From NCBI GenBank assembly GCA_963662275.1, contig OY759316.1, positions 1 through 64,000 on the forward strand: 64,000 nt of DNA. Direction: 5' to 3'. How positions within the stretch are numbered: position 1 is the first letter of the stretch; each line of letters begins with the position of its first letter. This document shows positions 86 to 19,171 of the stretch, in pieces. The notes beneath the pieces were generated by a model. It was not told the DNA's origin, did no database searches, and saw only the letters and a program-made list of their open reading frames with translations. The position numbers and the translations under genes were made by a program. This stretch comes from Candidatus Cloacimonadales bacterium. Its GTDB lineage: Bacteria > Cloacimonadota > Cloacimonadia > Cloacimonadales > DAONDQ01.

Positions 86-1946
86 GAGACTGTTCAGGCA
101 TTTATTCATAATATACAATAAGTTAGGAAGTATCAAGTTGCGAAAAGTGGTCGAAACGATCATAATTTGATATCACTTCCAGAATTGACATATCGGCATC
201 TCCTATAACCCAAACTCTCAAGCTAAGCTTTTTGATTAAAAGCAAAAGATAAGCGATAGTAAGTAATTTTTCGACTCCACTATTGACTATAAGTGTATCT
301 AAAAGTATATAAAATAGTTCTTTACAAGTTTATTGCTATAGCTTCAATGGCATTTGTTACCTGGTAACAAAAGGGAGGATATTATGACAAAAAAACACTC
401 CAATTCAAGAAGCTGTAAGTGTCAGTCATGAAAGTAACCAATACCATGTAAGTATTAACGTACCATGTTCATTTTGTTTGCCTGAAACGACATCCAACCA
501 CAAGTTTTTAATGGTATTCCTCCGCTTAATAACAGGAATAAACGGAGGCAATCTTCTCACATTTCAGCAAATAGCTAATCTGTTTAACTATGCAGACCGC
601 AGGAATGTGCATAATTTCTGGCAGGAGTTTGAGCAACATGGCAAAGATATTCTGGCGTATCTGAGCCGGAAAGTTGACCTGCTGGAGTGTATTCCTCAGA
701 TCGAGAGTTTTGTTATCGATAACCTGCTTTTACCTTTAAATGTAATGTATCAGGAGTTCATCAGCCATCATGATTTTCAAATGTCGTATGCCACTTTCTG
801 CAAATATGCTTCTCAGATCAATGTCCTGTCTGTGGTTAAGCAAGCTCAGAAGCTTCTTCTGAAAAAGACAGTAGGCAGTGATGCTGTACATCTACTGAAA
901 CTGCTTGCCGGTCAGCAAAATACACCTGTTATCTGTGACAGACTCCTGGAACAAATGAAGACTGCTAAAGGCAATGCATCGCATAGAATAGCCGATTCAA
1001 AGCCATTCCATAGTCTGGAACGCAAGAACCTGTGTCTGCTTGTGCATTACCTGGTTGGAAGCGGTATGAACTTCGAGACAATAGCTTTGCTGCTCAACAC
1101 CTGTAAAGCTACAGTCTCAAATCTCTGGCATGAAATCGGTGATTTGCAGAGCCTGATTCTGAACTCAATCGGTAAGTGGAGCGGAAAGATCAGCATTGAT
1201 GAGAAATATGTGAAGATCAAAGGTATTCCGTACTATGTCATCAGTATTGTGGATTTTGTGACTCACATCCCTCTATTTTGTGAGTTGTATCCTGACACAA
1301 AGAAAGAATCATTCGAAGCATGTTTCAGAACCTTCAGACAGCTCTATAGAAAAGATCCTATCCTGGTTGTCAGTGATGGCAGTAAAGCATTAGCGGCTGC
1401 CAGAAAAACCGTGTTTCCCAAAGTCCATTATCAGCTCTGCAAATTCCATAAAATACGAAACCTCTTCAAAAGAATCAGTCAATGTCATCTCCCTGAAGAG
1501 GGAGACAAGTTCTTTAAGAAGAGGATTATGAAAGCTTTCCGAAGAGAAACGGCGGGCGGAAGGAAAAAGGGTATCTCAAGCCTGACAGCTATTACTCCCC
1601 CAACCGCCGCCGAATACATCAAAAGCAATATCATTAGTGATTGGAGACACCTCAGCAAAGGTTTGACTTCCAATGTCTCTGAACGCTGGAACCGCAAAAT
1701 CAAGAAAGTGACATCCGGCAGATTTGGTCTAAAATCTGAAGAAACCACTCGCAACCTTGTGTTTTCGCTTTGGTTCAAAGAACTGGTCGATAAAGGACAA
1801 CCAATCCTGCGTCAGGAATCGCTTTTAGCCAGTTTAAATATCTCTCGGATATGTCAAGAAAATGTGGACTGGTCGCACTTAGACCACTTTTTCTCTGTCA
1901 GTACCAATAAGGCTGCATAAAATGGAGGTTAATTTTGAACAGTCTC
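86..1946 (+). mobile_element. Insertion sequence, IS256/Mutator-like DDE family, copy 1 (1861 bp)
   Basis: Terminal IRs GAGACTGTTCA (86-96) and TGAACAGTCTC (1936-1946); 8-bp direct repeat TCAAGGAT at 78-85 and 1947-1954; second copy at 54219-56079. Confidence 0.95.
478..1920 (+). CDS. DDE transposase (IS256/Mutator-like); frame is open from 388, true start uncertain
   Basis: SIDEKY (D), VVSDGS (D), QLCKFH (CxxH signature), TSNVSERWN (E); two N-terminal HTH-like segments. Confidence 0.9.
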   Translation: MPETTSNHKFLMVFLRLITGINGGNLLTFQQIANLFNYADRRNVHNFWQEFEQHGKDILAYLSRKVDLLECIPQIESFVIDNLLLPLNVMYQEFISHHDFQMSYATFCKYASQINVLSVVKQAQKLLLKKTVGSDAVHLLKLLAGQQNTPVICDRLLEQMKTAKGNASHRIADSKPFHSLERKNLCLLVHYLVGSGMNFETIALLLNTCKATVSNLWHEIGDLQSLILNSIGKWSGKISIDEKYVKIKGIPYYVISIVDFVTHIPLFCELYPDTKKESFEACFRTFRQLYRKDPILVVSDGSKALAAARKTVFPKVHYQLCKFHKIRNLFKRISQCHLPEEGDKFFKKRIMKAFRRETAGGRKKGISSLTAITPPTAAEYIKSNIISDWRHLSKGLTSNVSERWNRKIKKVTSGRFGLKSEETTRNLVFSLWFKELVDKGQPILRQESLLASLNISRICQENVDWSHLDHFFSVSTNKAA

Positions 1947-2994: not shown

Positions 2995-3396
2995 TTATTC
3001 TATAATCAATTCAACTAATTCCACCTTAATCCGATCAGGGTCTTCAAAGAAAACGATGTATGAATCTTCTCCGCCTGCATGGGGATGACGATCTTCATAC
3101 AGGATGGGAATTTGCTTTTCTTTCAATAAGCGTGAAAATACATCCACTTCCTGTTGATCCTGAACATGAAATGCCAGATGATTCAGTCCTGTACGGCATC
3201 TGTGAAAGGGAACATCACGATATTTCTCTTCCGTTTGCACAAAGACGAGATACGTATCTTCCAGTAGATAACTGAAACCTTCTCTCCATTCCTGGAACAA
3301 AACATATCCCAGTTTTTCCAGTAACCAGCTCCAAAACAATCGGCTATTCTCTAAATCACTGACATAGATTTCCACATGATGTAAGCTACCTCTCAT
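2995..3396 (-). CDS. VOC/glyoxalase family protein
   Basis: LHHVEIYVSDL, GLNHLAF, FEDPDRIKVEL motifs; start reassigned to ATG 3396 with an AGGAG SD. Confidence 0.88.
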   Translation of the reverse strand: MRGSLHHVEIYVSDLENSRLFWSWLLEKLGYVLFQEWREGFSYLLEDTYLVFVQTEEKYRDVPFHRCRTGLNHLAFHVQDQQEVDVFSRLLKEKQIPILYEDRHPHAGGEDSYIVFFEDPDRIKVELVELIIE

Positions 3397-3669
3397 ACAA
3401 ACTCCTAATGTATCAAATTGAAGATTTAGAAGGGAAAAATCGTTTGAACAATATGGGACTGGTCGCTCCCATGATGAAGGCACTGACAGCAATCCAGTAT
3501 CCGCTGAAAACTTGTATCTTAATGGATTTCAAAAATCCGGGTTTGCCGGAAAGATCATTGATCATATAGAAGTATAACAAAAAAAGCATCAAGAAAGATA
3601 CAATATATATTTTGATTCCTGCTATCTTGTCGTGGCATAAGATTCCAATCTTATGGGAACTGTGACTTT

Positions 3670-3731
3670 ACGTGGAGTAGGATGTCAATCCTGCTTTCGG
3701 AAGCCTTCCTCCCTTTATCCAAAGGGAGGGA
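3670..3731. repeat. Cluster of REP-like palindromes upstream of gatE
   Basis: ACGTGGAGTAGGATG..ATCCTGCT is the reverse form of the 10931/31548 repeat; CCTCCCTTTATCCAAAGGGAGGGA is identical to 8399-8422. Confidence 0.7.
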
Positions 3732-3836
3732 AACCAGACTATATTCATTATCTCTACATTTATATTGACTATCCCCCAGCCCAAAAAAAGCATAGAAAAA
3801 AATATGATCAGCCAGAAAGGCGAAAGGGAAGTTACC

Positions 3837-5816
3837 ATGGCGAACCGATGGAAAGAAAATTGGCTTAACTCCCGTGCCCGTGTGGGGTGGGTGGATCTGA
3901 AAACAGCCACACCGGACACATATCAGCAACTAGGTTTTAAATGCGGTCTTGAAGTGCATCAGCAACTTCTCACAGAGAAGAAGCTGTTTTGCCGTTGCAA
4001 GGCAGGAATATATCACGATTTCGATAACTATGATGCAGAGATCGTCCGTCATATGCGTCCCACACTCAGTGAATTGGGTGAATACGATGGCACTGCCCTC
4101 ATGGAATTTCGTACCCGTAAGCAGATCGTTTATCGTATCAAAAACGATAGCGCTTGTACGTATGAAGTGGATGACACTCCCCCATTCCTGCTGAATCGGG
4201 AAGCTTTGTCACACGCCATGGAGATTGCTCTCCTGGAGAATATGAATATCGTGGGTGAACTGCATATCACTCGTAAGCAATACCTCGATGGCAGCATTCC
4301 CACCGGTTTCCAGAGAACGACTATTCTCGGTATTGAAGGCTCTATTCCTATTTCTAATAAAACAATCAAACTCATCCAATTCAGTATAGAAGAAGACAGT
4401 TGCCGTGAAGTGTCTGATGTCCGCCATACCCGCACCTATTTCGCTGACAGATTGGGTATGCCTCTCATCGAAACGGTGACATATCCTGAAATGCTCACTC
4501 CCCAGGAAGCAGCAGAAGCAGGACAGTACATCCGTTTCCTTGCCCGCAGTTCAGGGAAGGCACGTATAGGCATTGGTGCAGCCCGTGAAGATGTGAATGT
4601 GAGTGTTACCCGCGGTACACGTGTGGAAATCAAGGGAGTTTCTCATATCACCTGGATTCCAAAGCTTACGCACAATGAAGCATTCCGTCAGAAAGCATTA
4701 TTGGAGATCATGGATGAACTGAAAAAGCGAATCCTTGAACCAAAGAAGTGGAATACAAACTGGGTTACTCTTCCTGCCGATGAATGGAAACATATCCCCA
4801 TTTTGAAGAAGTCCTCCGCTGAAAACTGGAAACTGATCGCCATCAATCTTCCTCATTTCGAGGGCTTGTTGTCCTTCTTTACCCAGCCCGGACAGTCTTT
4901 TTCCAATGAATTATCAGATAGACTGAAAGTCATCGCCTGCCTTGAAAAACCGAATATGTTCCATTCTGAAGAACTGGAACCTGTTCTTTCCGAAACTGAA
5001 TGGGCTGAAATTGCTACTTTATTGAAAGCCGAGGAAAACGATGCCCAGGTATTGATCTGGACTCCCCAGGAAGATCTGAAAACAGCAGTGGAAACAATAA
5101 CGGAACGTTGCCAGATGGCTTTTACCGGTGTACCGGGAGAAACCCGCAAGTCACTTCCGAACGGCACCACGCTTTTTGAAAGAGTACTTCCCGGTGCAGA
5201 CCGTATGTACCCGGATACAGATTCCGCTCCTATTCCTATTCTCGATGAAATGATCGAAGAATCACGCCGGAAACTGCCTGTTGACCTGCATGAAAGGATG
5301 CTTCAGCTTGCAGCCTGGAACGTACCGTTGGATGCCTATACCTACATTTTGCGCAACAACCTCATGCCTGTCATCGAAAAGATGTCCACGGAGCATGACA
5401 TCCATCCGAAATTCCTCTGCCTTATCTATGCTCATTACCTGAAGAGTTTGCAGGGACGCAATCCCCTTCCTTTCGGACATGACCGCATTTCTGACCTCTT
5501 GAAATTCATACGTGCCCGCAAACTGACCATGGACATTCTTTCTCTCATGCTGGAAGTACTCTTTGTGAATCCGAATATGGTCTTTTCTTCCATTCTCATG
5601 GTCGTCGGTTACAAGGAAGTGGATGTCGATAAATTATATGAACAGATTCCCATTTTGAGGGACATATTCAATCAGGTGAAATCCAATACCAACCCTGATG
5701 CAGAGATAAACTGGATCATGGGACGCCTAAAAAAACTGGCATTGGGAAACATACCTCTCAAGGAGCTTCGTGCCACCATTGAGGCAAAACTCCAGGAGGA
5801 GGTCGGCAATGCTTGA
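3837..5816 (+). CDS. gatE: Glu-tRNA(Gln) amidotransferase subunit E (archaeal-type)
   Basis: GLEVHQQL, KLFCRC, RPTLSELGEYD, DGSIPTGFQRT, DRLGMPLIE, RVEIKGV, LPGADRMYPDTD; about 660 aa with a central insertion typical of GatE and absent from GatB; start may instead be 3804. Confidence 0.9.
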   Translation: MANRWKENWLNSRARVGWVDLKTATPDTYQQLGFKCGLEVHQQLLTEKKLFCRCKAGIYHDFDNYDAEIVRHMRPTLSELGEYDGTALMEFRTRKQIVYRIKNDSACTYEVDDTPPFLLNREALSHAMEIALLENMNIVGELHITRKQYLDGSIPTGFQRTTILGIEGSIPISNKTIKLIQFSIEEDSCREVSDVRHTRTYFADRLGMPLIETVTYPEMLTPQEAAEAGQYIRFLARSSGKARIGIGAAREDVNVSVTRGTRVEIKGVSHITWIPKLTHNEAFRQKALLEIMDELKKRILEPKKWNTNWVTLPADEWKHIPILKKSSAENWKLIAINLPHFEGLLSFFTQPGQSFSNELSDRLKVIACLEKPNMFHSEELEPVLSETEWAEIATLLKAEENDAQVLIWTPQEDLKTAVETITERCQMAFTGVPGETRKSLPNGTTLFERVLPGADRMYPDTDSAPIPILDEMIEESRRKLPVDLHERMLQLAAWNVPLDAYTYILRNNLMPVIEKMSTEHDIHPKFLCLIYAHYLKSLQGRNPLPFGHDRISDLLKFIRARKLTMDILSLMLEVLFVNPNMVFSSILMVVGYKEVDVDKLYEQIPILRDIFNQVKSNTNPDAEINWIMGRLKKLALGNIPLKELRATIEAKLQEEVGNA

Positions 5817-7191
5817 TCTTTTTAAAGGTTATAAAGGTAGGGCACTGGAAGTCCTGAAGTCATTTAAAGTCAGGGTGTGGGGCGATACAACTGTCGATAC
5901 CACACGTGGACGCTTCCAGGGCATTATCCTTCCACGTTCTGAAAATGACGATGATAAACATATCGTTATCAAACTAATTACAGGATACAATGTCGGTATC
6001 GATGTTGAGAATATCCTCGATATGAAGGAAACCGGCTATAAGGAAGCGCATTACAAGATTCCTGAACGTGAATTTCCCAATACCCCCGGTCTGCCTAAAG
6101 TGAAGTTATTCGGAACAGGCGGTACCATCGCTTCCCGTTTGGATTATCGTACGGGAGCTGTGATTCCTGCCTTCTCACCTGGTGAATTGTACGGTGCAGT
6201 TCCTGAACTGGCAGATATCTGCAACCTGGACACTGAAAAACTCTTTGCGGTCTTCTCTGAGAACATGGGACCGGAACAGTATAAAAAGCTGGCTATTTCC
6301 ATTGGAGAAGCCATCAATAAAGGCATCGACGGCATCATTATCGGTCATGGTACGGATACCATGCATCACACAGCTGCTGCGATGTCATTCATGCTGCAGG
6401 ACTTGCCTGTACCTGTCGTTATGGTGGGCTCCCAGCGTTCCAGCGACAGACCGTCCTCCGATGCAGCTCTGAACCTCATGCACGCAGCCAAGACAGCCGC
6501 CGATTCCGATATCGCTGAAGTCATGGTCTGTATGTTTGGACCGACAAGTGATGAATACGGTCTCCTGCATCGCGGAACACGCGTACGTAAGATGCATTCC
6601 TCCTATCGTTCCACATTCAGAACAATCGGTGATGTACCGATTGCTACTGTCACACGTGAGAAGATCACACCCATCAAGCTGGATTACAATATCCGCCGTC
6701 GTGACAGAACCGTGAAAGTCATGCCATTCTTTGAAGAACGTGTCGCGATTGTGTATTACTATCCAAATATGCACCCGGATATCATAGATTCACTCACAGA
6801 TAACGGTTATAAGGGAATCGTCATTGCCGGAACAGGCTTGGGACATATCAATAAACCGGTATATCCAGCCATCCGCAGAGCTGTGGAGAAAGGCGTTCAT
6901 ATCTATATGACCGTCCAAACTCTCTGGGGTTATGTGAATATGTTTGTCTATGACACAGGACGTGATCTCATGGGTATGGGCGTTATCCCGGGTGAGAATC
7001 TTCTTCCTGAAGTTGCCTATATCAAATTAGCCTGGGCTTTGGGTCAAACCAACGACCATGAAGAAGTCAGAAAGCTCATGATGACCTCCATCGCCGGTGA
7101 AATCACCGATGGCGAACCATACAACGGTTATCTCATCTTCCAGGGCGGTATCCCAGAAGTGGAAGAATTCATACGCAAGCATCATAAGTAG
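5809..7191 (+). CDS. gatD: Glu-tRNA(Gln) amidotransferase subunit D (archaeal-type)
   Basis: N-terminal GatD extension plus asparaginase fold: GTGGTIAS, HGTDT, GSQRSSDRPSSD, RKMHSS; GGAGG SD; overlaps the gatE stop. Confidence 0.92.
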   Translation: MLDLFKGYKGRALEVLKSFKVRVWGDTTVDTTRGRFQGIILPRSENDDDKHIVIKLITGYNVGIDVENILDMKETGYKEAHYKIPEREFPNTPGLPKVKLFGTGGTIASRLDYRTGAVIPAFSPGELYGAVPELADICNLDTEKLFAVFSENMGPEQYKKLAISIGEAINKGIDGIIIGHGTDTMHHTAAAMSFMLQDLPVPVVMVGSQRSSDRPSSDAALNLMHAAKTAADSDIAEVMVCMFGPTSDEYGLLHRGTRVRKMHSSYRSTFRTIGDVPIATVTREKITPIKLDYNIRRRDRTVKVMPFFEERVAIVYYYPNMHPDIIDSLTDNGYKGIVIAGTGLGHINKPVYPAIRRAVEKGVHIYMTVQTLWGYVNMFVYDTGRDLMGMGVIPGENLLPEVAYIKLAWALGQTNDHEEVRKLMMTSIAGEITDGEPYNGYLIFQGGIPEVEEFIRKHHK

Positions 7192-7193
7192 GA

Positions 7194-7310
7194 AGCTTGT
7201 AGCTTGTAGGGAAGAGAAGACCCGTCTGATCCCCCTCCCATTTGTAAAGGGAGGGGTTAGGGGAGAGCTAGTTCTGTTCTAGTCTCTAGCCTCAAATCTC
7301 TAGTCTCTTC
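7194..7310. repeat. Dispersed palindromic repeat flanked by heptamer tandem repeats
   Basis: CGTCTGATCCCCCT..ATTTGTAAAGGGAGGGGTTAGGGGAGAGCT.GTTCTG nearly identical to 39946-39998; AGCTTGT x2 and TCTAGTC-like x4. Confidence 0.8.
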
Positions 7311-7440
7311 TTCAATAGGGGAGTGCGGAAGTAAGCCCGTCTTTTTGGAGAGTCTGATGCTCTTCTCTGAACTATTCCCTATTCGCTATTTACTTTTCCC
7401 TTCTGCAACGGGAGAGTTTGAAAAAACAGATATGATTGAA

Positions 7441-8190
7441 CTACAATTTAACTGTCATTCCCAGCACAGCATAATTGAACAGGGCGAATCCATAAACCAC
7501 ATCATTATCTGAACCGCCTTCCAATATACGATAACCGGCTTTCAGAGCAATATTATCATTCAATGAGTAGACTCCTGCAAGCAGTACATCCTCAGCTCTT
7601 CCCTGGGGAGCGGCTAGGGCATCTCCTTGGAACTGGATTGCGAATTTATCAGATATCTTATGACTATATCTGAAATTCACAATAGGTACGAATCTTACAT
7701 TGGACTTTTCTGCAGATAATCCCCCACCTTCTACCGCAATCCTTGCATCCCGAATCTTTGCAGTCAATCCCATGCCAAATTCATTGTTTTCCGTCCGGAT
7801 AAATTCATATCGATATGTTAGCCGATATGAATTGAATTTATAGGTTCCCTTCAAGTTTGTATGTGCAGGAAAAGTCACTCCTGCAAAATCGATGTGCCTG
7901 TCCAAATTACCTTCTGATTTTACCGTCAGCGGAGCAAATAATACGGATAAACTGTGCCTCTTCCCTAATGACTGGATCAGCATTACTCTTATAAATGGGG
8001 ATGCATCAGTATGGAAATCCTTCACAAGTGAAAAGTCAGACCCCGTATTCCCCGGGATACGCACATGGTTCATTGTATTGAAAGTCAGGCCTGATTCCAT
8101 ATCGATACTGGTTTCTGCATAGCCGATGTTAATTGATATGGCAATAGTAGCAATCAGCAATATCAATCTAATTAAACCGTGTTTTTCCAT
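7441..8190 (-). CDS. Putative outer-membrane beta-barrel protein
   Basis: Signal peptide, amphipathic beta-strands, C-terminal LGMTVKL strand. Confidence 0.7.
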   Translation of the reverse strand: MEKHGLIRLILLIATIAISINIGYAETSIDMESGLTFNTMNHVRIPGNTGSDFSLVKDFHTDASPFIRVMLIQSLGKRHSLSVLFAPLTVKSEGNLDRHIDFAGVTFPAHTNLKGTYKFNSYRLTYRYEFIRTENNEFGMGLTAKIRDARIAVEGGGLSAEKSNVRFVPIVNFRYSHKISDKFAIQFQGDALAAPQGRAEDVLLAGVYSLNDNIALKAGYRILEGGSDNDVVYGFALFNYAVLGMTVKL

Positions 8191-14351: not shown

Positions 14352-14689
14352 ATGTTATCCCCTTTCATGATTTCCATAAAATTTACACTGAGAAAAGTAG
14401 TTATTTACTATGGTTTCATGTCAAGAACAATAGGCGGAAGTTTATCACTGGCTGCTAACAGCTTATAGCAAAGAGAAGAATAGAAAAAGCTTAAACAGAA
14501 GATTGCATGCTTCTGCCAGAGCCTTATCTTTTTTTTCTTGCTAAATTTTATAGAGTTATATAATATAGATTACTCTAAAAAATGGTGAATTTGTAAGATT
14601 CGGTTAATCTATTTCAGGAAGTATTTATGTAATAAATTAACCTGGTGTATTCTTTGTAAAAAATAGTAATACTCTTGATGGAGGAAAAA

Positions 14690-17600
14690 ATGAGATTAAG
14701 GATTTTAGTCAGCTTAATGTTATGCCTTTTTTTTGCCGGTTTATGGGGTTGGACCCTGGATCGTCAATGCAACTTCCCAGCTAATTTCTATAATATGGAT
14801 ATTAATGGAGACGATGTCTGGGCTATTGGTACAGCGGGTGCAGTTGCACACTCTACAGACAGCGGATCCACTTATCGTTTTGTTTTAAATCCCGGCTTCA
14901 TTGCTGCAACAGCAACCTACACCGATTTGAATGATGTTGATTTTTATGATACAACTCATGGTATTATCGTTGGTGAAAGTGGTTTGGTTGCTCGCACAAC
15001 TGACCGTGGACTTAACTGGACTGTCTTGACCAGTATCGCACCTATATTTGCAAGTACAAGTATAACCAGTGTTGTTTATCATTCCGATGGTAAAGTCTGG
15101 GTTTGTGGTGCAGCGGGTAAAGTTGCTTATTCCACCGATAATGGTGATAGCTGGATTGAACAGACTTCAGGTATCACAAATGCTCTATTTTCTATTTCTA
15201 TGAATGATAACGGTACCGGTTTTATGACCGGAAACTCTGGAACAAGTCCTGCTCTTTCAAAATTGCTCAGGACTTTAGATTATGGTACAACTTGGACTTT
15301 ATTGCCTATCGTTATTACAAATAATCCACAACTTTATCAAGTGAAGCAATTTGGTTCAACCGTAGTTGTTATGGGTGATAAAGGATTTGTTGGTGTCAGT
15401 ACGGACAATGGTGATTTGTGGACAAATCATGAATTGATTGGTGGCGCGACAATCAAAATGCAGGATGCATGCTGGAATGGTACGACAGGTTATGTTGTCG
15501 GATATAGCAGTACGATTTTAAAAACGACTGATAATTGGGCAACTCTTACGCCTGTAATTACTGATTTCAGTGATTACTTTGAAGGTATTGGTTTTAATGC
15601 TGCCGGTAACCTGATCGCTTCCTGCTGGAAAGGTGATATGCTTCGTTCCCAGGATAGCGGATTAACTTGGTCTGAAAGGACTGTTCCCATCAACTTTATT
15701 TATGGTACCAGCGTTGTTGATAATAATACTTGGTACATGGTTGGAGATGTTGGTTATATCATGAAAACAACCGATGGTGGTTCGAATTTCACCCGCTTGA
15801 CAGTCACTACGGGAAATGCCGCAGCTCCATATGAATATAGCCGTTTCTACGCTACTTATTTTAAAAATGCCCTGGAAGGATGGGTTACAGGTAAGACAGC
15901 AGGTAAGATATATCACACTCTGGATGGTGGAGCTACCTGGTCATTTTTCCAAGTACCGGGAGTAGCAGCTTCCAAGAGCTATTATAAGTTACAATTTATC
16001 AATGACACAATAGGTTATGCTATTGGCCCTGATACCTATAATGCCAAGACAAACGATGGTGGATTAACCTGGACAGCCCTGGCTAATGTAGGTATTCCAG
16101 GAGGAACCGCGTTGTACAGTTGTTATTTTGGCTCAGAATTGGTTGGTTATGCCACTTCCGCTGCAGGTAAACTGTTCCTGACACAGGATGGTGGAGCAAA
16201 CTGGACCTCGATCACAGTTGGTACTCAAGATATTATGGATATTTGTTTTAAGGATGCCCAACACGGTGTTTTTGTAGCGAAAGCCGGCAATATCTATTAT
16301 ACAGCTAATGGCGGTCAAAATGTTGCAGATTGGACTGTCGCGACTGAATCAGCTACAGGAGATATCAATGGGTTATACTGTGATACAGAAGGAAATTTCT
16401 ATGCATCTGCCTATAGTTCTGATGCTGATAATCTAGGTAATACCTGGGCGGTCATGAAATCAATTGATAATGGTGCAATCTGGAACCAGGAAATTCTACC
16501 CTCGCTTACATTTAATAAAACGCGCCTGACTGGTGTGACCGGAAAAGCGAATAAAATCATTGCCTTTGGTGGTAATCAAGTGATCTTTAGTAAGTCTGCA
16601 TCTACACCTCCAAATCTGGCGACTGATCTGTTCATTTCCGAATACATTGAAGGAAGCAGCAATAATAAATCTATTGAAATTTTCAATGGAACCGGTGAAC
16701 CTGTCAGCTTAGCTCCATATGCAGTTAAACTTGCTCCTAATGGAGGTGCTTGGGGAACGACACTGACTACAAATCGTATCTTGGCAAATAATGACGTCTT
16801 TATCATATCCAATGCCGGAGCAAATGCCACGATCCAGGCAGTAACTGATACCATTAGTACCGTTACTTATTATAATGGTAACGATGCTGTAGGTCTTTTC
16901 AAGAATGGTTTGTTGATTGATACGATTGGTATTCAAGGAGTTGACCCGGGAGCAACCGTTTGCTGGCCTGTAGCTGGTGTTGCAGGAGCTACGCTGAATC
17001 ATACGATCGTCAGAAAACCTACCGTCGCAAGTCCAACCACTGAATGGGCTGTTTCAGCAGGTACAAATGCAGATGATTCACAATGGTTAGTATATCCGAT
17101 TGATACAATTACCTATCTTGGTACGCATACATTTACACCCGGAACGACAAATCCGCAGGCAGGAATTCCAATTTTTGCACCACCTGCAGGGATGTATCCT
17201 AATGCTATCAATGTGACATTGACAAGTTCCACAGTAGGAGCAGAGATATACTACACTACTGATGGAACAGATCCAACCCAGGCATCCAACCATTATACGA
17301 TCGCCATACCTGTAAATGCAGCAACCACAATCAAAGCACGTGCTTATGCAACAGACATGGATCCAAGCTATATTGCATCTGCTGTTTATTCGTTCCCTGT
17401 CAGTATTCCCAATATTACTGCCTTATGGGCAGCCAATGCAGATAATACAACAGTCTATCGGTTGAATGAAGAAGCTATTCTTACATTCAAACAGATATTC
17501 CGTAATCAAAAATTTATCCAAGACGCGAATGCAGGTGTATTGATTGATGATCTTTCAGCAGCTCTAACGTCAACTTACAATGTTGGAGATGGCATCACTG

Positions 17601-19171
17601 GAATTATGGGAAAACTCACGTTGTATGGTGGTATGCTGGAATTTATTCCTGTTGCAGATCCTGGTACTGCCACATCAACGGGTAATATCATTAATCCAGT
17701 TGTCATTACTCTTGCTGAACTGAATACAAATTACAACAATTATAAATGTCGAGTAGTACAAATCACAAATGTAACATTCACGGCACCGGTTGATAATTTT
17801 GCTAATGGCATCACATATCCGTTTGGAAATGGTGCAGATACTGCCAATTTCCGTACATCCTTCTACGATGTTGATTATATTGGAACAGTGATTCCATCCA
17901 GTGCCATGAATTTATCGGGTATCCCGAATTCCAGAGTGGATGGTAATTACTTTACTTCACGAAATTTGGCAGATTTCCAGTTCATTAATCCCCAATTCCA
18001 GCCACCATCAAATTTAGTGGCTACTGCAGGAAATGGTACAGTTCATCTCACATGGATTGCCCCTCAAGTACCTGGAAACCGTACAAAAACAAACAGGGAT
18101 ACTCGTAATTTGAGAGGTTATCAGGTATACAGAGACGGTACGGCACTTGGTATACAAATCACAGATATATTGTATGATGATAACACTGTTACAAATGGAA
18201 CTCCCTATACTTATTATGTGACTGCCTTATACACAAATCCTAATGGAGAATCAGCACATTCAAATTCACAGACAGTTACTCCTTCGTCTCAGACATTCAA
18301 TCCACCCTCAAATTTACAGGCTGTTGCAGGAAATGCTTTAGTAACACTTAGCTGGAATGCTCCTGTTGCAGCACCTGCTACTGTTCGTCAAGCCCAGGGA
18401 AAGACGGTTGCATCACGTGCTCTGAGTGGATACAAAGTCTACAGAAATGAATCATTCTTAGTTGATATCACAATTGGAACAACAACATATCTGGATAACG
18501 CGGTAACGAATGGAACGCTCTATCATTATTATGTAACAGCCATATATAGTAATCCGAATGGTGAATCAGCGTCATCTAATGTAGTATCAGCTACTCCGCA
18601 AGCACCTGTTCTAAATCCACCAACCAACCTGGCAGTACAGCAGGTTACTCATGACGTAGTACTGAACTGGGTTGCACCAGTTCCCGCTGTAGGGACAACA
18701 GTGCTGTGGATCAATATCTATCGTGAGAATAACTTCATGACAAACATCAGTCCTGATTTGATAACCTGGACTGATCTGAATGTGTCAGCAGGACTTCATA
18801 CATACAAAGTCAGTGCGGGTTATCTGCAGGGAGAATCAGTATTTTCCAATGAAGCAAGTGTGACTGTTGGTAACAATGATCCAGTCGCTGTCACTTCAAC
18901 TTCCCTTTTAGGCGCAGCTCCAAATCCTTTCAATTCTGCCACTTCAATTCGTTATCAGGTGAAAGGAAGCCATGATGTAATGATCCAGATTTACAACGTC
19001 AAAGGGCAATTAGTAAAAACACTCGTACAAGAAACCAAATCATCCGGTATGAATTCTGTTTCCTGGAATGGGAGAGATAGTAAAAATCAGGTTTTACCTG
19101 CAGGAATCTATTTCTATAAAATGAAGTCCGGAAATTACTCTAGCACTAAGAAAGTCATACTTCTTAAATAA
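14690..19171 (+). CDS. Large secreted protein: BNR/Ycf48-like propellers, lamin-tail domain, CHB_HEX_C-like domain, three Fn3 domains, FlgD-Ig/T9SS-like CTD
   Basis: Many T-x-DGG-x-W repeats; LFISEYIEGSSNNK; IYYTTDGTDP; PPSNL repeats; PNPFN...IYNVKGQLVKTL...GIYFYKM. Confidence 0.85.
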   Translation: MRLRILVSLMLCLFFAGLWGWTLDRQCNFPANFYNMDINGDDVWAIGTAGAVAHSTDSGSTYRFVLNPGFIAATATYTDLNDVDFYDTTHGIIVGESGLVARTTDRGLNWTVLTSIAPIFASTSITSVVYHSDGKVWVCGAAGKVAYSTDNGDSWIEQTSGITNALFSISMNDNGTGFMTGNSGTSPALSKLLRTLDYGTTWTLLPIVITNNPQLYQVKQFGSTVVVMGDKGFVGVSTDNGDLWTNHELIGGATIKMQDACWNGTTGYVVGYSSTILKTTDNWATLTPVITDFSDYFEGIGFNAAGNLIASCWKGDMLRSQDSGLTWSERTVPINFIYGTSVVDNNTWYMVGDVGYIMKTTDGGSNFTRLTVTTGNAAAPYEYSRFYATYFKNALEGWVTGKTAGKIYHTLDGGATWSFFQVPGVAASKSYYKLQFINDTIGYAIGPDTYNAKTNDGGLTWTALANVGIPGGTALYSCYFGSELVGYATSAAGKLFLTQDGGANWTSITVGTQDIMDICFKDAQHGVFVAKAGNIYYTANGGQNVADWTVATESATGDINGLYCDTEGNFYASAYSSDADNLGNTWAVMKSIDNGAIWNQEILPSLTFNKTRLTGVTGKANKIIAFGGNQVIFSKSASTPPNLATDLFISEYIEGSSNNKSIEIFNGTGEPVSLAPYAVKLAPNGGAWGTTLTTNRILANNDVFIISNAGANATIQAVTDTISTVTYYNGNDAVGLFKNGLLIDTIGIQGVDPGATVCWPVAGVAGATLNHTIVRKPTVASPTTEWAVSAGTNADDSQWLVYPIDTITYLGTHTFTPGTTNPQAGIPIFAPPAGMYPNAINVTLTSSTVGAEIYYTTDGTDPTQASNHYTIAIPVNAATTIKARAYATDMDPSYIASAVYSFPVSIPNITALWAANADNTTVYRLNEEAILTFKQIFRNQKFIQDANAGVLIDDLSAALTSTYNVGDGITGIMGKLTLYGGMLEFIPVADPGTATSTGNIINPVVITLAELNTNYNNYKCRVVQITNVTFTAPVDNFANGITYPFGNGADTANFRTSFYDVDYIGTVIPSSAMNLSGIPNSRVDGNYFTSRNLADFQFINPQFQPPSNLVATAGNGTVHLTWIAPQVPGNRTKTNRDTRNLRGYQVYRDGTALGIQITDILYDDNTVTNGTPYTYYVTALYTNPNGESAHSNSQTVTPSSQTFNPPSNLQAVAGNALVTLSWNAPVAAPATVRQAQGKTVASRALSGYKVYRNESFLVDITIGTTTYLDNAVTNGTLYHYYVTAIYSNPNGESASSNVVSATPQAPVLNPPTNLAVQQVTHDVVLNWVAPVPAVGTTVLWINIYRENNFMTNISPDLITWTDLNVSAGLHTYKVSAGYLQGESVFSNEASVTVGNNDPVAVTSTSLLGAAPNPFNSATSIRYQVKGSHDVMIQIYNVKGQLVKTLVQETKSSGMNSVSWNGRDSKNQVLPAGIYFYKMKSGNYSSTKKVILLK

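Follow-up and report, generated by a model that had tools for sequence, protein, structure and literature searches.

A GatDE amidotransferase operon beside glutaminyl-tRNA synthetase in a Cloacimonadota bacterium

The amidotransferase GatDE is called exclusive to archaea in two papers (PMC2811023; PMC9499178, section 19), which build upon this exclusivity scenarios such as the co-evolution of GatDE with archaeal tRNA-Gln and the reason why archaea never adopted GlnRS (glutaminyl-tRNA synthetase). What, then, is the role of a gatE-gatD gene pair near the start of a bacterial chromosome? The pair lies in a stretch of 64,000 nucleotides (hereafter the window) from a Candidatus Cloacimonadales bacterium (assembly GCA_963662275.1, contig OY759316.1, positions 1 to 64,000), which forms the first 64 kb of a closed, single-contig Cloacimonadota chromosome of 4.38 Mb (99.97% complete). 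A preliminary description of the window had recognised the two genes from their motifs and proposed that this lineage may make its Gln-tRNA by a divergent GatDE. We find that the genes are what they were taken for, a genuine and intact GatDE operon that is under selection, and that they belong to a large bacterial clade, annotated in databases and neglected in the literature, of which they are an ordinary member rather than a new kind of system. The proposed role in the lineage does not hold up, and the question shifts to what GatDE offers a bacterium that already has GlnRS.

An intact gatE-gatD operon in a bacterial clade

Scored against profile hidden Markov models, the predicted proteins are a true GatE and a true GatD, and not a GatB and an ordinary asparaginase. 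GatE passes both NCBIfam equivalogs (NF003107, 462.3 bits, cut-off 456; TIGR00134, 393.2 bits, cut-off 319.55) and stays far below six GatB models (39.6-120.9 bits, cut-offs 314.8-680), while GatD passes TIGR02153 (518.5 bits, cut-off 324) and NF003217 (513.3 bits, cut-off 310), the asparaginase equivalogs lying far under their cut-offs. Matches to chains in the PDB point the same way for GatE (2d6f_C, 302.5 bits, and 1zq1_C, 274.7 bits; GatB chains at most 61.7 bits) and for GatD (1zq1_A, 416.5 bits, and 2d6f_A, 396.8 bits; asparaginases at most 135.6 bits). Pfam reports GatB_N on GatE (157 bits, residues 35-474, surrounding an insert) and GatD_N (47.9 bits), Asparaginase (191.1 bits) and Asparaginase_C (124.5 bits) on GatD. 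The GatD motifs GTGGTIASR, HGTDTM and VRKMH, with the catalytic Thr, Thr-Asp and Lys residues, are identical in 1zq1_A and 2d6f_A, and a single chain unites the equivalog scores, the GatD_N domain, the asparaginase fold and these motifs. All the motifs picked out in the preliminary description recur in the translations, namely RPTLSELGE, CTYEVDDTPP, RKQYLDGSIP, GAAREDVN and LPGADRMYP in GatE and GSQRSSDRPSSD in GatD. The two subunits that make up the enzyme are encoded together on the same strand (Table 1), with an overlap of 8 nt that places the gatD ATG inside the end of gatE, and 460 aa is the most frequent GatD length among relatives.

Table 1. Positions of the features discussed, counted from the first letter of the window unless another record is named (ORF, open reading frame; UTR, untranslated region).
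Feature	Position	Strand	Description
ORF	478-1920	+	480 aa; 1.9 kb upstream of gatE; possible divergent transposase
Rfam match	3300-3404		16.5 bits; upstream of the intergenic region
Upstream intergenic region	3493..3836	+	344 nt; presumed site of the gatED promoter and 5' UTR
gatE	3837..5816	+	ATG 3837 to stop 5816; 659 aa; Glu-tRNA(Gln) amidotransferase subunit E, kinase/transamidase; predicted cradle, inserted, helical and tail domains
gatD	5809..7191	+	ATG 5809 to stop 7191; 460 aa; subunit D, asparaginase-type amidase with GatD N-terminal domain
ORF	7441-8190	-	249 aa; between gatD and the Blc gene
ORF	14675-19171	+	1498 aa; C-terminal type A sorting domain of the type IX secretion system
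tRNA-Gln pair (outside the window)	G000:C1:2842273-2842442	-	tRNA-Gln(CUG) and tRNA-Gln(UUG), adjacent

When GatE was modelled with AlphaFold2 from an alignment of 45 sequences, the predicted local distance difference test score (pLDDT) was 91.3 and the predicted template modelling score 0.88. The best Foldseek matches of this model are the GatE chains 1zq1_C of P. abyssi (template modelling score on the target, TMt, 0.83) and 2d6f_D of M. thermautotrophicus (TMt 0.80), at 31-33% identity in the Foldseek alignments, with GatB at about 0.7. Of the 69 columns that are near-invariant in archaeal GatE (a single residue making up at least 95% of the 84 sequences of the archaeal clade), the window protein retains 63, including GLEVHQQL, EED, R250/D252/N254/S256 and RMYPDTD, the six altered positions being 229, 233, 244, 251, 269 and 378. 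In an alignment of 45 GatE sequences from bacteria and archaea, 50 columns show no variation. In the pair of relatives with the least saturation (G024-G017; dS 0.79-0.89), the ratio of nonsynonymous to synonymous substitution rates (dN/dS) is 0.057 in gatE and 0.029 in gatD, similar to that of gltX (0.033 in G012-G032), and for the two genes it ranges from 0.03 to 0.08 over the comparisons made. Such low ratios mean strong purifying selection, by which gatDE is clearly maintained where present. (Genomes of the Cloacimonadales sample are numbered here, G000 being that of the window and G001 onwards its relatives.)

The place of the window protein among GatE sequences was sought in a whole-library search, which gave 595 GatE representatives at E<=1e-30. 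A FastTree phylogeny of 125 rows (116 of the best 150 representatives, 580-720 aa long, with the window protein and eight named proteins) splits into two clades with support of 100 apiece, one of 41 rows, to which the window protein belongs, and one of 84 rows. Under a site-heterogeneous model in IQ-TREE (58 rows, unrooted, with the bacterial and archaeal groups drawn from the FastTree result), the 28 bacterial rows fall on one side of a branch with support of 99 in the Shimodaira-Hasegawa-like approximate likelihood ratio test, and the 18 organism-named rows among the 57 other than the window all agree with this grouping. Names on the bacterial side comprise Cloacimonadota, Zixibacteriota, Celaenobacter, one "Patescibacteria" label, Deltaproteobacteria, Coatesbacteria, Clostridiales, Aminicenantes and Desulfaltia, and in a further listing of GatE all ten organism-named rows are bacterial; of ten clusters on this side, one carried an organism name. 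Those on the other side are all archaeal (21 organism-named rows, and four of ten clusters, from Heimdall-, Thor- and Odinarchaeota and Diapherotrites); in the unrooted tree, a Heimdallarchaeota GatE is the archaeal row that lies nearest (support 91). By these trees the window GatE sits in a bacterial clade, such as the preliminary description had suspected, which spans several phyla and is separated from archaeal GatE as one branch. The motifs that had seemed odd beside the archaeal consensus (CTYEVDDTPP, RKQYLDGSIP, GAAREDVN) prove to be the consensus of this clade, and hence its signature. Three homologues, P0168 (943 aa), P0072 (765 aa) and P0219 (781 aa), are far longer than the usual 640-690 aa and may be fusions or have mis-called starts.

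The order of the genes, E before D, is likewise shared: they are adjacent and on the same strand in 21 of the 24 loci compared, and of the three exceptions two are truncated where their contigs end, while in one (L030) gatE lacks a neighbouring gatD. In this last locus, on a Cloacimonadota contig from a metagenome-assembled genome (MAG), gatE (5959-8028) is followed by a 127-aa ORF and unrelated genes; in L032 and L029, a spacer that carries an antisense ORF lies between gatE and gatD. Among named genomes, the closest loci belong to Cloacimonadaceae, Cloacimonadales and Cloacimonadota MAGs (GatE identity 67-78%), followed by Bacteroidetes and Vicingus MAGs (55-56%). Within the order, the GatE tree recovers the taxonomic families f1, f7 and f12 as well as parts of f3 and f6, so that descent has been mostly vertical; some placements differ from the GluRS tree (e.g., that of f7), and exchange within the order may have occurred. 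The preliminary description had left open whether such bacterial pairs are already annotated. They are: public NCBI and JGI records name the bacterial proteins as "Glu-tRNA(Gln) amidotransferase subunit GatE" or as subunit E of GatDE.

GlnRS, GatCAB and tRNA-Gln in the genomes that carry GatDE

Beside GatDE, the genome of the window encodes a GlnRS over the cut-off (736.1 bits), a single bacterial-type GluRS (521.1 bits), AsnRS, glutamine synthetase and two AsnB proteins (449.7 and 441.2 bits), and neither GatB nor GatA of the GatCAB amidotransferase exceeds its cut-off there. No second GluRS or AspRS was found, each genome having one GluRS match and G000 one bacterial-type AspRS-like ORF. In the order sample of 41 genomes, G000 included, GatE exceeds its cut-off in 19 and GlnRS in 38, among them 17 of the 19 with GatE; the three without GlnRS are 88-93% complete, and a true GatB is over its cut-off in none. 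Since GlnRS occurs in 38 of 41 genomes and GatE in 19, GatDE is accessory and not the lineage's route to Gln-tRNA, contrary to what had been proposed from the window, and the 22 genomes that lack both GatE and GatB indicate that GlnRS suffices in this order. A genome relying on GatDE as its sole route would be expected to lack GlnRS and to have A1-U72 in its tRNA-Gln; here GlnRS is present and A1-U72 occurs in one of two tRNA-Gln genes.

The same picture extends to the phylum. Of 158 Cloacimonadota genomes with a completeness of 90% or more, 56 have a GatE over the cut-off; a match occurs in 27 of 55 genera, and presence is split inside genera (5/15 genomes in g3, 8/14 in g21, 4/6 in g31, 0/21 in g34). 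The gatDE genes are dispensable, present in roughly a third to half of the phylum, and frequently lost or gained. A role in making up for a missing glutamine synthetase is ruled out, as that enzyme (PF00120) is found in 38 of the 41 order genomes, that of the window among them. In several families (f7, f8, f11), G000 not being one of the cases, glnS and gltX lie directly side by side and may form a co-regulated GlnRS-GluRS pair (G024:C23:246778-249988; G017:C2, G007:C6, G011:C5, G019:C16, G031:C46, G018:C42 and G037:C12).

The substrate side was examined through the acceptor stem's first base pair, which archaeal GatDE reads together with the D-loop according to one paper (PMC9499178). ARAGORN finds 47 tRNA genes in G000. 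Two of them, lying side by side beyond the window (Table 1), are tRNA-Gln genes, of which tRNA-Gln(CUG) has U1-A72 and tRNA-Gln(UUG) has A1-U72, both with G73. The pair that the preliminary description had singled out for inspection is thus present in one isoacceptor, and across relatives it is unlinked to GatDE. With tRNA-Gln loci read in 30 of the 38 matching genomes (41 in the order; 60 tRNA-Gln genes), A1-U72 occurs in 2 of 16 genomes with GatE (G000, G040) and in 3 of 14 without (G027, G021, G039), which rules it out as a marker of GatDE dependence; it is limited to the UUG isoacceptor in G000, G027 and G040 and extends to every tRNA-Gln copy in G021 and G039. As these last two have GlnRS and no amidotransferase, the GlnRS of the order evidently copes with A1-U72. 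In all, eight of the 60 genes carry the pair, spread over three taxonomic families (loci L038, L041, L042 and L043 in the relatives), and every carrier genome has GlnRS and lacks GatB. From this spread, the change probably arose several times, and a simple reading would be that, without GatCAB, nothing enforces U1-A72, so that this weak pair can flip.

Possible roles of GatDE beside GlnRS

The explanation that we favour, and consider probable, if with some reserve, is that GatDE provides a second, dispensable indirect route to Gln-tRNA(Gln), or a clean-up of Glu-tRNA(Gln), beside GlnRS. By analogy with the solved archaeal enzymes, GatD would hydrolyse Gln or Asn and pass the ammonia to GatE, which, judging from homology, would use ATP to phosphorylate Glu-tRNA(Gln) at the side-chain carboxyl of its Glu and then amidate it to Gln-tRNA(Gln); the Glu-tRNA(Gln) would come from mischarging of tRNA(Gln) by the single GluRS. 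Amidotransferases use a difference in the D-loop to reject Glu-tRNA(Glu), as described in PMC2811023, and such a cue exists here, the D-loop having 8 nt (..GGTTA) in both tRNA-Glu genes of G000 and 7 nt in both tRNA-Gln genes. Also in favour, the G000 GluRS has Tyr instead of Arg at the position aligned to Arg358 of the T. thermophilus enzyme, the anticodon discriminator, in an alignment that is not secure around that position.

Several observations weigh against this explanation. U1-A72 is the pair in all tRNA-Gln found in the remaining 14 of the 16 GatE-bearing genomes read. On GatE itself, Pfam reports neither GAD (at E<=0.001) nor the GatB_Yqey tail, and the stem of the subclade formed by Cloacimonadota and Zixibacteria is long (0.56-0.6, support 100). 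The residue at the Arg358 position of GluRS is likewise rejected as a correlate of GatDE, since it shows a similar mix in genomes with GatE (7 Tyr, 5 Arg, 2 Gln) and without (7 Tyr, 9 Arg). Indeed, no feature tested, be it A1-U72, the GluRS residue, AsnB or glutamine synthetase, tracks the presence of GatDE.

The mostly U1-A72 tRNA-Gln, the lack of Pfam GAD and YqeY matches and the long stem together make an altered specificity possible, and this is the main rival: in the fast-evolving Cloacimonadota/Zixibacteria subclade, GatDE may have kept its amidotransferase chemistry and taken up another substrate or other conditions of action, such as a different aminoacyl-tRNA or a regulatory or stress role. 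We regard it as distinctly less probable than the favoured role. Among the best 120 relatives, precomputed Pfam annotation gives GatB_N only in 119 (P0106 also has GatB_Yqey), whereas archaeal GatE carry GAD and GatB_Yqey, and other bacterial GatE nearly all have GatB_Yqey and a few have GAD as well. Three of the six altered near-invariant residues (G233R, R244I, Q251E) lie in or next to a basic loop, RSxGKxRxG, which immediately precedes the REDVN strand. The 2009 structural paper (PMC2811023) describes a short GatE loop with positive charge that adjoins the first base pair, and the RSxGKxRxG loop may be the same one. The patchy presence inside genera such as g3 and g21 also fits a changed role. 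Set against these points are the 63 of 69 near-invariant columns retained, the modelling of the whole chain, tail included, at high pLDDT in a form that superposes on archaeal GatE, and the lack of any conserved neighbour pointing to another pathway. That model, in which the inserted AspRS/GAD-like domain may be present, aligns to 1zq1_C and 2d6f_D over 513-536 columns and has weak matches to AspRS (probability 0.38-0.60). For the putative helical and YqeY-like tail, the part of GatE that reads the D-loop of the tRNA, the helices of residues 470-657 have pLDDT mostly above 89 and the sequence match to 1zq1_C extends to residue 654, with a poor column alignment of the tail motif.

A wider formulation takes in both the favoured role and its main rival, and we offer it tentatively, as possible rather than probable. 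FCB-group bacteria with GlnRS would keep, under strong purifying selection, a re-tuned GatDE with a changed first-base-pair loop and a diverged tail, which would serve conditionally as a second pathway, detoxify the Glu-tRNA(Gln) that a leaky GluRS makes, or else act on another substrate. In the re-tuned enzyme the archaeal G233 and R244 would have become R and I/T/V, and it would accept U1-A72 tRNA-Gln plus the recurrent A1-U72 variants.

The two tRNA-Gln genes of G000 suggest a division of labour, in which GlnRS charges tRNA-Gln(CUG), with its U1-A72, while GluRS puts Glu on tRNA-Gln(UUG), with A1-U72, and GatDE then amidates it. These adjacent genes differ in exactly this way, as do those of the GatE-bearing G040, and A1-U72 and the D-loop are what archaeal GatDE reportedly reads (PMC9499178). 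We nevertheless judge it quite improbable, given, among the 30 genomes read, the 14 GatE-bearing ones with U1-A72 throughout and the three GatE-negative genomes (G027 in the UUG isoacceptor only, G021 and G039 in all) in which A1-U72 coexists with GlnRS and no amidotransferase.

Still less probable is a switch of GatDE to Asp-tRNA(Asn), for a tRNA-dependent synthesis of asparagine like that served by GatCAB in Thermus and Deinococcus, which have AsnRS and GlnRS. In the order, GatE is somewhat commoner in genomes without AsnB over the cut-off (8 of 13) than in those with it (11 of 28), AsnA being found in one of the 41, and in family f12 the two genomes with GatE are the two without AsnB. That trend is gone at the level of the phylum, where 34 of 99 genomes with AsnB and 24 of 59 without it have GatE, and this equally rules out compensation for an absent asparagine synthetase; moreover, G000 has two AsnB genes as well as AsnRS, with one bacterial-type AspRS candidate, and archaeal GatDE is described as specific for Glu-tRNA(Gln) in PMC2811023.

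Two explanations can be set aside as very improbable. That GatDE, as in archaea, takes the place of GlnRS and GatCAB and serves as the chief or sole source of Gln-tRNA(Gln) agrees with an intact GatDE, with GatB in none of the 41 genomes and with a GatA under its cut-off in G000, and founders on the strong GlnRS of G000, on a GlnRS missing only from genomes 88-93% complete and on the 22 genomes devoid of GatE and GatB alike. That the genes are recently imported or decaying passengers without a role is suggested by their composition (GC 0.466 for gatE and 0.473 for gatD in a genome of 0.391; GC at third codon positions, GC3, about 0.49 against a median of 0.35 and 0.34 for gltX, in the 98th-99.5th percentile of 1240 long ORFs), an excess also seen in G024, and by the transposase-like ORF upstream, and is countered by two intact frames with low dN/dS, by a gene arrangement shared with the same-genus G001, which speaks against very recent import, by a gatDE GC3 close to that of gltX in most other relatives, and by a GatE tree that recovers several families.

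Genomic setting, known systems and significance

The surroundings of the operon are bacterial, as had been described, with RelA/SpoT (677.6 bits), a Blc lipoprotein, an MFS transporter and a protein sorted by the type IX secretion system nearby. The order gatE-gatD-Blc-MFS of the window recurs in G001, on a contig of its own, and, the genome being closed, a chimeric contig is thereby excluded. Across the loci compared, no neighbour of gatDE is conserved other than lineage-locally, namely an RNB-domain RNase upstream in four loci and a GidA/TrmFO-like gene with DUF3795 in four to five.

In the intergenic region upstream of gatE, an Rfam scan gave no match at E<=1, the sole match of the scan (gathering score 290) lying further upstream (Table 1), and no sigma-70-like site was called, by a scan whose models do not cover FCB-group promoters; a search for tRNA genes in the window found none. 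The 480-aa ORF has sub-threshold matches to IS256, IS6 and ISL3 transposases (26.7-50 bits) and may be a divergent transposase; it lies where the chromosome record begins, and no dnaA was seen there. The 249-aa ORF has no Pfam or NCBIfam match and no counterpart in the syntenic contig of G001. Further downstream, the 1498-aa protein combines Ycf48/BNR-like repeats, a stretch related to ExeM-like nucleases and its terminal sorting domain, and is probably secreted or displayed on the cell surface.

How does this GatDE compare with systems already described? With archaeal GatDE (M. thermautotrophicus, PDB 2D6F, with tRNA-Gln; P. abyssi, PDB 1ZQ1) it shares the two subunits and apparently the domain order, and the likeness extends to the equivalog models, the catalytic motifs of GatD, the fold of GatE and most near-invariant columns. 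It differs in its bacterial host, which also has GlnRS, in the low identity of GatE and its separate clade, in the mostly U1-A72 tRNA-Gln of the order, in the GAD and YqeY domains undetected by Pfam, in residues of the basic loop and in being dispensable in its phylum. From the annotated bacterial clade (MAGs of Cloacimonadota, Zixibacteria, Bacteroidota, Coatesbacteria, Aminicenantes, Desulfobacterota and Clostridiales) it differs in no essential: gene order and clade motifs are the same, GatE identity is 67-83% to Cloacimonadota and 55-60% to Zixibacteria and Bacteroidetes records, and the raised GC and one A1-U72 tRNA-Gln are particulars of this genome. An amidotransferase retained despite direct synthetases also has a parallel in Thermus, Deinococcus and Bdellovibrio, which keep GatCAB beside GlnRS and AsnRS (PMC4206432). 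There, however, GatCAB serves asparagine synthesis through a second, non-discriminating AspRS, whereas the amidotransferase kept here is GatDE, in a genome that has AsnB and in which neither a second AspRS nor a second GluRS was seen.

Among the matches listed in a literature search that did not extend to subscription papers, none joins GatDE with Cloacimonadota, Zixibacteria or Bacteroidetes, and none since 2014 reports a bacterial GatDE in the title or abstract. A large bacterial clade of GatDE living beside GlnRS contradicts the statement that the enzyme is exclusive to archaea, and the coexistence amounts to a natural experiment on the redundancy of direct and indirect tRNA charging, for which the window offers a clean case, its closed genome coding for GlnRS, glutamine synthetase, AsnB and a single GluRS, lacking GatCAB and having A1-U72 in one tRNA-Gln. 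The negative correlations found here narrow the accessory roles that GatDE may have in a bacterium with GlnRS. Should the enzyme prove to be re-tuned or to act on another substrate, a single system would go against three textbook tenets: that GatDE is archaeal, that it reads A1-U72 and that amidotransferases are redundant where there is GlnRS.

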